Both the position numbers and the translations under genes were made by a program. Of a stretch of 64,000 bases of DNA, positions 30,255 through 36,303 are shown piece by piece. The stretch lies in assembly GCF_055900595.2 (NCBI RefSeq), contig NZ_CM148325.1, one strand, 5' to 3'. The notes beneath the pieces were generated by a model, which was given only the letters and a program-made list of their open reading frames with translations, was not told where the DNA came from and made no database searches. How positions within the stretch are numbered: position 1 is the stretch's first letter; each line of letters opens with the position of its first letter.

Positions 30255-30937
<683 letters not shown>

Positions 30938-30951
30938 AACCTATTTCTTCA

Positions 30952-33912
<2,961 letters not shown>

Positions 33913-34437
33913 TTGTCATCCCTCCTCAGGGACGTAATAAGTTGATCCATCAATTATCAATGCATAGAAAACATATTATGTTTCGCGTTTACGATTATGC
34001 GGCGTTATAGAGGAATGGTTCAATTATTCTTTCCCCTAAGTCCGATTGCGGACATATATAAAGCACGTGAACACACACACAGAAAGAAATAACAAAAACA
34101 CAATATTTCAATACGTTAATGAAAGCGTTAATTTTAAAACATAGACCATGAAAATATAAAACAACTAAAACAGACAAATAATCTATCAATAACCAATGAA
34201 CTTTACGTTATTCACTTTTTGAAAACGTCACCAAATCCCCAAAAACAATAATCTATAGCTATAAATAAAAATTAAAAATATTTTCAATGAATATAAATTT
34301 ATTGCTATTTCTATTACAAAGATGTCCTGACCTCTCATTCATTCTCTTCTTATCAACATCACGACAACTTTCGTAAAACATCCCCACCCTGCTTCAGGTA
34401 TACTATGCTCCTCGATTCCACAAACATCAGGCAGACC

Positions 34438-35412
34438 ATGACAGACCTAATCCAACGCCCTCGTCGCCTGCGCAAATCTCCTGCGCTGCGCGCTATGTTT
34501 GAAGAGACAACACTTAGCCTTAACGACCTGGTGTTGCCGATCTTTGTTGAAGAAGAAATTGACGACTACAAAGCCGTTGAAGCCATGCCAGGCGTGATGC
34601 GCATTCCAGAGAAACATCTGGCACGCGAAATTGAACGCATCGCCAACGCCGGTATTCGTTCCGTGATGACTTTCGGCATCTCTCACCATACCGATGAAAC
34701 CGGCAGCGATGCCTGGCGGGAAGATGGTCTGGTGGCGCGTATGTCGCGCATCTGTAAACAGACCGTGCCAGAAATGATCGTCATGTCAGACACCTGCTTC
34801 TGTGAATACACTTCTCACGGTCACTGCGGTGTGCTGTGTGAGCATGGCGTGGACAACGACGCGACCCTGGAAAATTTAGGCAAGCAGGCCGTGGTTGCAG
34901 CTGCTGCAGGTGCAGACTTCATCGCCCCTTCCGCCGCAATGGATGGCCAGGTACAAGCGATTCGCCAGGCGCTGGACGCTGCGGGCTTTAAAGATACGGC
35001 GATTATGTCGTATTCGACCAAGTTCGCCTCCTCCTTTTATGGCCCGTTCCGTGAAGCTGCCGGAAGCGCATTAAAAGGCGACCGCAAAAGCTATCAGATG
35101 AACCCAATGAACCGTCGTGAGGCGATTCGTGAGTCACTGCTGGATGAAGCCCAGGGCGCAGACTGCCTGATGGTTAAACCAGCCGGAGCGTACCTCGACA
35201 TCGTGCGTGAGCTGCGTGAGCGTACTGAATTGCCGATTGGTGCGTATCAGGTGAGCGGTGAGTACGCGATGATTAAGTTCGCTGCGCTGGCGGGTGCTAT
35301 AGATGAAGAAAAAGTGGTGCTCGAAAGTTTAGGTTCGATTAAGCGTGCGGGTGCGGATCTGATTTTCAGCTACTTTGCGCTGGATCTGGCTGAGAAGAAG
35401 ATTCTGCGTTAA
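34438..35412 (+). CDS. hemB: porphobilinogen synthase HemB
   Basis: ORF track 34405..35412; start placed at [18 protein letters not shown] (324 aa). Confidence 0.95.
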
Positions 35413-35420
35413 TGATCATT

Positions 35421-35446
35421 ATGCCGGGTTATCCAACCCGGCATTT
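35421..35446. terminator. hairpin between convergent hemB and tauD (gccgggtt-atcc-aacccggc), likely bidirectional terminator
   Basis: Perfect 8-bp inverted repeat with 4-nt loop in the 39-bp gap between the convergent stop codons. Confidence 0.55.
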
Positions 35447-35451
35447 CCCCC

Positions 35452-36303
35452 TTACCCCGCCCGATAAAACGGTTTATCCCCAAGAATCGTCGCCCGATGC
35501 ATAATCCGCCGCTGTGGCAGGTAATCCGCATTGGCATAGTGCTGGGTCACGCGGTTATCCCAAATCGCGATATCATTTGGTTGCCAGCGCCAACGCACCT
35601 GAAACTCCGGTTTAATGATGTGGGCAAACAAAAAACCTAACAAGGCTTCGCTCTCTTTCTCGCTGACATCAACAATTCGTGTGGTAAAACCTTCGTTCAC
35701 AAACAGCGCCTGTTTACCGGTCACCGGATGCGTTCGCACAACCGGATGGAGTAACGGTGGATTTTTCGCGACCGCCTCGCGCCAGCGTTGATGCTCCTCC
35801 TCCGTTTTGCGGTATTTGTATTCCGGGAACGATTTACGGAAATCATGCTCCGCACGCAGCCCGCTCAACAGCTGGCGGAAGGGAACAGAGAGCGCCTCAT
35901 AGGCCGCAATGCCGCTGGTCCAGAGCGTATCGCCGCCAGTCGAGGGTAACTCTTTCGCCGCCAGAATCGCCCCTGCGGGTGGCGTTTCAATAAATGTCAC
36001 ATCGGTGTGCCAGTTGTCGTTATCCGGCGGATTATCGTTATGGGTATCCAGGACGATGATCTCGTCAACCCCTTCGGCATGAGGGTAAACAGGATGAATA
36101 TGCAGTTCGCCAAAACGCTGGGCCAGCGCGCGTTGCTGCTGCGGTGTAATGGCTTGTTCACGCACAAATACCACCTGATGGCGCAGTACCGCATGGTAAA
36201 GCTGTTCAAACTGATTATCGCTTAACGGACGCGTCAGGTCGGCACCCGAAATTTGTGCACCGATATACGGCCCCAGCGGGGTAATGCTCAGACGTTCACT
36301 CAT
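35452..36303 (-). CDS. tauD: taurine dioxygenase TauD
   Basis: ORF track, 283 aa, [23 protein letters not shown]. Confidence 0.95.
   Translation of the reverse strand: MSERLSITPLGPYIGAQISGADLTRPLSDNQFEQLYHAVLRHQVVFVREQAITPQQQRALAQRFGELHIHPVYPHAEGVDEIIVLDTHNDNPPDNDNWHTDVTFIETPPAGAILAAKELPSTGGDTLWTSGIAAYEALSVPFRQLLSGLRAEHDFRKSFPEYKYRKTEEEHQRWREAVAKNPPLLHPVVRTHPVTGKQALFVNEGFTTRIVDVSEKESEALLGFLFAHIIKPEFQVRWRWQPNDIAIWDNRVTQHYANADYLPQRRIMHRATILGDKPFYRAG

Follow-up and report, generated by a model that had tools for sequence, protein, structure and literature searches.

H-NS represses several autotransporter genes of E. coli. Intrinsic curvature and phased A-tracts are often cited for promoters silenced by this protein but do not strictly define them, and the high-affinity motif is not required for H-NS to bind. 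Leaders that are repressed by CsrA, such as those of pgaA and glgC, have GGA motifs, one of which lies in a hairpin loop and another of which overlaps the Shine–Dalgarno (SD) sequence.

The closest described relative of the locus treated here is yaiU of Salmonella (now seaB), which has been called a "previously reported H-NS-repressed gene" (Li et al., Nat Commun 2023, PMC10657408). Binding of H-NS to the yaiU promoter was demonstrated by EMSA, ITC and ChIP-qPCR, with Kd values in ITC of 0.29–0.46 μM across four promoters including that of yaiU; c-di-GMP inhibits the binding, and yaiU expression is lower in an hns(K107A) mutant (PMC10657408). The hemB–seaB–iprA synteny has been confirmed in Salmonella, and phenotypes of both SeaB and its E. 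coli counterpart EhaB were obtained by overexpression only (PMC13248724), which fits a silenced promoter.

In this study, we analyzed the spacer between ehaB (yaiT in K-12) and hemB in a 64-kb stretch of E. coli DNA (64,000 nucleotides, hereafter the window). The spacer is an ordinary divergent control region of an adhesin gene and a heme gene, and the explanation that we consider probable is that of a three-part regulatory spacer, with a conserved ehaB module, a core that serves as an H-NS platform, and a hemB promoter block. H-NS silencing of this kind of promoter has already been demonstrated in the Salmonella ortholog, and the element is of a known type. A literature search for yaiT and H-NS together found no paper, a search for hemB and H-NS gave a false match on an author's name, and the ExcludonFinder and HusR papers deal with other neighbors of yaiT.

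Materials and methods

A scan with the EhaB protein, using one genome per species, yielded 53 loci. In 40 of these, ehaB faces hemB, and together with K-12 (locus L002) they provided 41 comparison spacers. The genera with this arrangement include Escherichia, Citrobacter, Kluyvera, Pseudocitrobacter, Trabulsiella and Yokenella as well as Leclercia, Lelliottia, Pluralibacter, Raoultella, Intestinirhabdus and others. The comparison overall covered 43 spacers from about 20 enterobacterial genera, and 26 spacers entered alignment A1. Two loci labeled Chryseobacterium sp. 18061 (L038) and Xanthobacter autotrophicus AM3 (L054) carry typical enterobacterial ehaB sequence, the Xanthobacter record being a 444-bp contig at 0.8x coverage; both probably represent contamination or mislabeling of public assemblies.

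Results

Positions 33913–34437 are the exact 525-bp non-coding gap between the divergent genes ehaB (minus strand) and hemB (plus strand), so that the region of about 500 bp between yaiT and hemB noted in an earlier, sequence-only reading was delimited correctly. The ehaB gene (982 aa; RefSeq name "autotransporter adhesin EhaB") starts at 33912 and encodes a protein with the Pfam Autotransporter beta-domain, while hemB (porphobilinogen synthase, 324 aa from the RefSeq start; Pfam ALAD) begins at 34438. Among 5426 complete E. coli genomes, 5423 had a match to the spacer with the same ehaB/hemB arrangement; in K-12 (NC_000913.3), the orthologous spacer lies at 389,728–390,250.

The GC content of the spacer is 32.6%, compared with 46.9% for ehaB, 54.2% for hemB and 51.4% for the whole window. 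Only 0.25% of the 525-bp segments in the 64 kb are as poor in GC, and the minimum for this length (31.0%, 33857–34381) overlaps the spacer, whose lowest local value is 10% over the 50 bp at 34263–34312. The plus strand is A-rich, with an AT skew of up to +0.32, and we counted 14 homopolymeric A or T stretches of four bases or longer, while tandem repeats were not found in the spacer. The earlier statements that the region is far more AT-rich than the surrounding genes and that it contains repeated A/T runs are therefore both correct. The 41 other Enterobacteriaceae spacers are 371–617 bp long with 31–44% GC, whereas the adjoining hemB genes have 54–62%. When the alignments are considered together, the spacer splits into an ehaB side of about 145 bp, a center of about 300 bp and a hemB side of about 75 bp.

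The locus is arranged differently in Buttiauxella. In its five loci (L012, L013, L020, L025 and L028), the ehaB homolog lies downstream of proB-proA and not opposite hemB, yet 300–400 bp of 16–33% GC precede the gene, and a similar promoter, the ATTGATGGACCAAC box and the SD hairpin described below are kept. Since ehaB retains the AT tract there without hemB on the other side, the tract belongs to ehaB and not to hemB. The Buttiauxella leader is longer, and the hairpin loop is TGGG or GTAG in place of GAGG in three of the five loci.

The ehaB gene is intact in the window (30964–33912, minus strand), whereas yaiT of K-12 is a pseudogene split by IS3. The first 120 residues of EhaB are 52% identical to K-12 YaiT but 82–91% identical to Citrobacter and Pseudocitrobacter proteins, and E. 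coli therefore has at least two deeply divergent alleles of the passenger domain. The allele in the window is the rarer one; across the junction, E. coli DNA matches it at 98.5% at best. Downstream, iprA (30255–30878, minus strand) follows ehaB in 49 of the 51 loci examined, Buttiauxella included, and encodes a protein with a winged-helix HTH_46 domain and a weak cNMP-binding-like domain. Judged from this gene order, ehaB and iprA form what is evidently a conserved pair.

The ehaB side of the spacer (33913 to about 34056) is, as far as its sequence can tell, a deeply conserved control module with a promoter of the sigma-70 type. A consensus scan identified a putative −10 hexamer, CATAAT (33994–33999, minus strand), which is exact in 41 of 42 spacers and also in a Salmonella-like locus (L059), and a putative −35 hexamer, TTGAAC (34018–34023, minus strand), that is likewise conserved. 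The combination TTGAAC-N18-CATAAT, which agrees with the sigma-70 consensus at 9 of 12 positions, recurs unchanged across genera in all but one of the 42 spacers. Because the intervening 18 nt (34000–34017) change in sequence among the spacers but never in length, the pair has the signature of a promoter. The −10 hexamer ends 60–83 nt from the ATG among the spacers (81 nt in the window), and its position predicts an ehaB transcription start site (TSS) at 33986–33988. Promoter-like consensus matches in the region are not in excess (3, against 2.8 ± 1.6 in shuffled sequences); the assignment of the ehaB promoter thus stands on conservation and not on a mapped TSS. The proposal of the sequence-only reading that the spacer holds the yaiT promoter agrees well with these observations.

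Upstream of the −35 hexamer lies a palindrome, GTCCG-N4-CGGAC (34040–34053), centered at about −59.5 from the predicted ehaB TSS. It is the sole perfect copy in the 64 kb, and no second copy was found near iprA or elsewhere in the window. None of the 42 spacers departs from its outer GT..G/..AC positions, and the arms pair at five of five positions in 18 spacers and at four of five in 17, that is, at four or more positions in 35 of 42. The conserved palindrome is a candidate site for a dimeric transcription factor. Farther upstream, near −120 relative to the predicted TSS, is an IHF-like box, TTTCAATACGTTA (34106–34118, plus strand), with one mismatch from WATCAANNNNTTR. Boxes in the same orientation with at most one mismatch occur 78–89 nt beyond the −35 hexamer in 24 of 41 spacers, distant genera among them, but such matches are frequent in AT-rich DNA and the box is for this reason only a candidate. 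Readings of the conserved boxes as Fur-box, FNR or marbox sites gave poor matches by eye and were dropped. In Salmonella, a SoxS ChIP-seq peak without a motif has been reported at hemB<>yaiU (PMC10268841).

The predicted 5′ untranslated leader of ehaB comprises about 75 nt from the putative TSS (33913–33987, minus strand). Conservation and folding point to a hairpin around the SD sequence, CGUCCCU-GAGG-AGGGAUG (33917–33934, minus strand), which stops a few nucleotides before the ATG and has the SD/GGA in its loop and 3′ arm. The corresponding TCCCTGAGGAGGGA stands unaltered 5–7 nt from the ATG in 39 of 42 spacers, and this hairpin is the only helix of the RNAalifold consensus and is also present in the single-sequence minimum free energy (MFE) fold. 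A leader box, UUGA-UGGA-UCAA (33942–33953, minus strand), recognized in alignments A1 and A2 and in the MFE fold, would form a second, small hairpin with GGA in its 4-nt loop; as DNA, ATTGATGGA(T/C)CAAC is almost invariant, and GGA is retained in 25 of 26 sequences. The leader of the window folds into exactly these two hairpins (MFE −20.5 kcal/mol, z = −2.0). Covariation in the two hairpins was not significant (105 of 500 shuffles did equally well), and RNAalifold indicated no compensatory pairs; with a sequence that hardly varies, the structure cannot be proved in this way. The only GATC (Dam) site of the spacer (33945–33948) lies inside the leader box TTGATCCATCAA; the Dam site itself is not conserved, as many other genera carry GGTCC there.

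These features make the ehaB leader resemble a CsrA target, which we regard as a lead and not as a finding. GGA motifs are present both in the UUGA-UGGA-UCAA loop, a candidate upstream CsrA site or else a DNA operator, and in GAGGAGGGAUG at the SD sequence, the two places expected of a CsrA-controlled leader. The conserved GGA motifs occupy two sites that are separated by about 25–30 nt, with a single motif in the loop and a pair within or beside the SD sequence; a loop motif and an SD motif are also found in pgaA and glgC, which CsrA represses. Supplementary Data 2 of Potts et al. 2017 (PMC5694010) marks yaiT′ of K-12 as one of the CsrA targets that Kulkarni et al. 2014 had predicted, and the ribosome footprints of yaiT′ were elevated in a csrA mutant (log2 +0.63, significant) and classified as "repressed by CsrA" (PMC5694010). 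However, yaiT′ showed no CsrA CLIP-seq peak, and neither its translation efficiency nor its RNA level was significantly altered (PMC5694010), so that the ehaB leader is a candidate only.

At the opposite end of the spacer, the hemB-proximal block (34360–34437) contains a putative −10 hexamer, TATACT (34399–34404, plus strand), in a conserved register: TAnAnT is found 31–33 nt from the hemB ATG in 43 of 43 spacers, and the predicted TSS is at about 34410–34415. According to the alignment, a conserved box, CAACTTTCGTAAAACA (34365–34380, plus strand), covers the −35 region and may be either a weak −35 hexamer (AAAACA, 18-nt spacing) or a factor site, and the leader and ribosome-binding region CCACAAACATCAGGCAGACC (34418–34437, plus strand) is conserved as well, the conserved leader of the block being CCACAAACATCAGGCA. 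The hemB promoter looks like a separate, constitutive, housekeeping promoter at the far end of the spacer. An upstream in-frame ATG at 34405, used for an older 335-aa version of HemB, overlaps TATACT, and other genera do not share it; the RefSeq start at 34438, which gives the 324-aa HemB, is the one that the comparison supports.

Between the two conserved sides lies an AT-rich core (34056–34360) of about 26% GC, delimited by composition and alignment and A-rich on the plus strand, which we propose as an H-NS platform. What is conserved in it is its low GC content, its A-richness on the plus strand and its being long, and hardly its sequence. Over 34056–34365, 3162 of 5418 E. coli genomes share only 60–80% identity with the window, against about 99% in the adjoining hemB. 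So much divergence within one species is unusual for intergenic DNA of the core genome, and the divergent stretch does not run on into the variable part of ehaB. A (CA)5 run at 34073–34083 in this allele is broken or absent in K-12 and other Escherichia, and the run and the bases after it yield the only terminator-like match of the spacer.

Two properties often associated with H-NS were also evaluated. The high-affinity motif TCGATAAATT (tCGATAAATT) has three matches with two mismatches in the spacer (33946, 34180 and 34296) and none better. AA/TT periodicity at 10–11 bp was not above that of dinucleotide shuffles (the fraction of shuffles at least as high was 0.32–0.84), and a wedge model, which is only approximate, put the spacer at 7.0 degrees per turn, close to the 6.5 that the window averages. 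The curved DNA assumed in the sequence-only reading was accordingly not borne out.

Such properties might be expected if the core were slack intergenic DNA, AT-rich through mutational bias without constraint and bound by H-NS, if at all, without a regulatory role. The absence of a strong H-NS motif and of curvature agrees with this explanation, as does the alignment of the central 200–300 bp, which succeeds between genera in patches only and with a length that varies, and which gives 62.6% identity between the window and K-12 over 34063–34260, in contrast to 91–96% in the flanking blocks. Nevertheless, more than 40 taxa have kept the length (371–617 bp) and low GC content of the spacer even though the sequence has turned over completely, the AT tract also persists next to a different neighbor gene, as in Buttiauxella, and H-NS binds the orthologous Salmonella fragment in vitro and in vivo (PMC10657408). 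We therefore consider slack DNA improbable. The core is an example of DNA in which a high AT content and a long extent are maintained although the sequence changes.

It is very unlikely that the spacer hides an independent gene, whether for a small RNA, a small protein or a leader peptide, although the sequence-only reading had allowed for a small RNA or a leader peptide. The spacer is long, mechanically called open reading frames (ORFs) reach 64 aa, and the ehaB leader has ATG triplets, one of which is inside the conserved TGATGGA box; this ATG, however, is missing in Leclercia, Lelliottia and Enterobacter ENT03. The apparent ORF families mirror conserved blocks of DNA, with lengths that differ and indels of 1–2 nt that shift the frame, and no leader peptide or small ORF with a constant frame and length was found across the taxa. 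Likewise, no Rfam family matched even at E ≤ 10, permissive thresholds over 33000–35500 returning only two chance eukaryotic matches, and the sole terminator-like hairpin (34080–34063) needs the allele-specific CA run, so that a small RNA gene here would have neither an Rfam family nor a conserved core or terminator. The curated K-12 annotation has no gene in the spacer, yet it includes small proteins such as YkiC and YtiB, and of the 5418 matching E. coli genomes, the 30 that were listed have no annotated feature beneath the central spacer. The core in particular cannot encode anything, because it is too variable even within E. coli.

A phase-variable switch that works by inversion of a promoter, of the fimS or UpaE type, is scarcely credible for the core: UpaE, another autotransporter adhesin as EhaB is, is controlled by an invertible switch (PMC6083910), and the core has imperfect inverted repeats (34085–34107/34290–34312, 74% complementary) and a 9-nt perfect inverted pair (34149–34157/34278–34286), but these repeats are short or imperfect, lie in DNA of about 25% GC and are missing from K-12, the promoter with its conserved hexamers is outside them, the segment aligns as one colinear piece among the genomes listed, and neither perfect flanking repeats nor both orientations nor a nearby recombinase gene was found, the neighbors being iprA, ampH, hemB and tauDCBA.

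The primers published for the Salmonella experiments were compared with the window. The yaiU-ChIP-R primer, TTGTCATCCCTCCTCAGGGAC, is identical to 33913–33933, and the yaiU EMSA primer CAAGAAGGATTATGCGGCG covers the ehaB −10 block. An exact primer search of metagenome contigs retrieved two Salmonella-like loci, L059 and L064, in which both ChIP primers are exact and the other EMSA primer has one mismatch. The spacer of L059 (512 bp, 34.6% GC) holds every ehaB-proximal element; within it, the ChIP amplicon corresponds to offsets 1–299 and the EMSA probe, of 73.8% AT, to offsets 75–375. By position, these fragments correspond to approximately 33913–34211 and 33987–34287 of the window, respectively.

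Discussion

The data suggest the following model for the control of ehaB. Transcription would be controlled by a sigma-70 promoter (34023–34018/33999–33994) with the palindrome around −60 and the IHF-like box around −120, and the resulting leader would present one GGA in the loop of a small hairpin while burying the SD sequence in a second one. The central 300 bp or so is most likely a platform on which H-NS nucleates and from which it spreads over the ehaB promoter, and this spreading would keep the adhesin silent when cells are grown in the laboratory. The silencing is lifted in Salmonella once c-di-GMP lowers H-NS binding. The hemB-proximal 75 bp would contribute a housekeeping hemB promoter (TATACT, 34399–34404) and a short leader. 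For the E. coli allele, we infer the occupancy by H-NS from the composition of the core and from the ortholog. Repression of the yaiT promoter of the H-NS type, as the sequence-only reading had suggested, is in this way supported by analogy, through the EMSA, ITC and ChIP-qPCR results with yaiU. Overall, that reading was largely right about an AT-rich, H-NS-type promoter region of a surface-protein gene, whereas its curvature and its hidden gene did not hold. The spacer looks odd because a silencing tract of this type precedes a conserved adhesin promoter.

A more elaborate scheme can be envisaged, in which ehaB and iprA form a self-contained cassette of adhesin and regulator, the palindrome is the operator of IprA, IprA counteracts silencing by H-NS, and CsrA gates translation through the two GGA sites. 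We consider this scheme doubtful. Co-occurrence of the palindrome with iprA cannot be assessed, as iprA is present in almost every locus.

EhaB and SeaB are biofilm and colonization factors and vaccine candidates. The present analysis provides promoter and leader coordinates that are absent from E. coli genome annotations, and the promoter, the −60 palindrome and the GGA leader offer concrete starting points in the search for conditions and factors that induce ehaB. Beyond the known element type, what is new lies in the deeply conserved leader and −60 palindrome, the constant pairing of ehaB with iprA and the high within-species divergence of the core.

Compared with known systems, the locus differs from typical H-NS-silenced adhesin loci in that it is no recent island, the gene, the AT tract and the promoter being syntenic in about 20 genera, and it differs from the H-NS-silenced promoters often called curved in that curvature is not predicted for the ehaB spacer. 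It is similar to the H-NS-silenced adhesin and autotransporter promoters of E. coli in having an AT-rich upstream tract and a surface-protein gene of low GC content (46.9% vs. 51.4%); as in H-NS-bound regions, the high AT content extends over hundreds of base pairs (32.6% GC in the spacer and about 26% in the core, vs. 51.4%), and, as with H-NS-silenced adhesins in general, no laboratory phenotype of EhaB has been seen without overexpression. Relative to yaiU of Salmonella Typhimurium, the sequence of the AT-rich core differs, H-NS binding is a prediction for the E. coli allele, and the adhesin passenger differs as well (SeaB and EhaB are 49.7% identical there; PMC13248724). Nonetheless, yaiU (seaB) is the positional ortholog of ehaB, divergent from hemB and followed by iprA, and the two loci share the SD hairpin, the TTGATCCATCAA box, the −10 hexamer, the 18-nt promoter spacer, the −35 hexamer and the GTCCG-N4-CGGAC palindrome.
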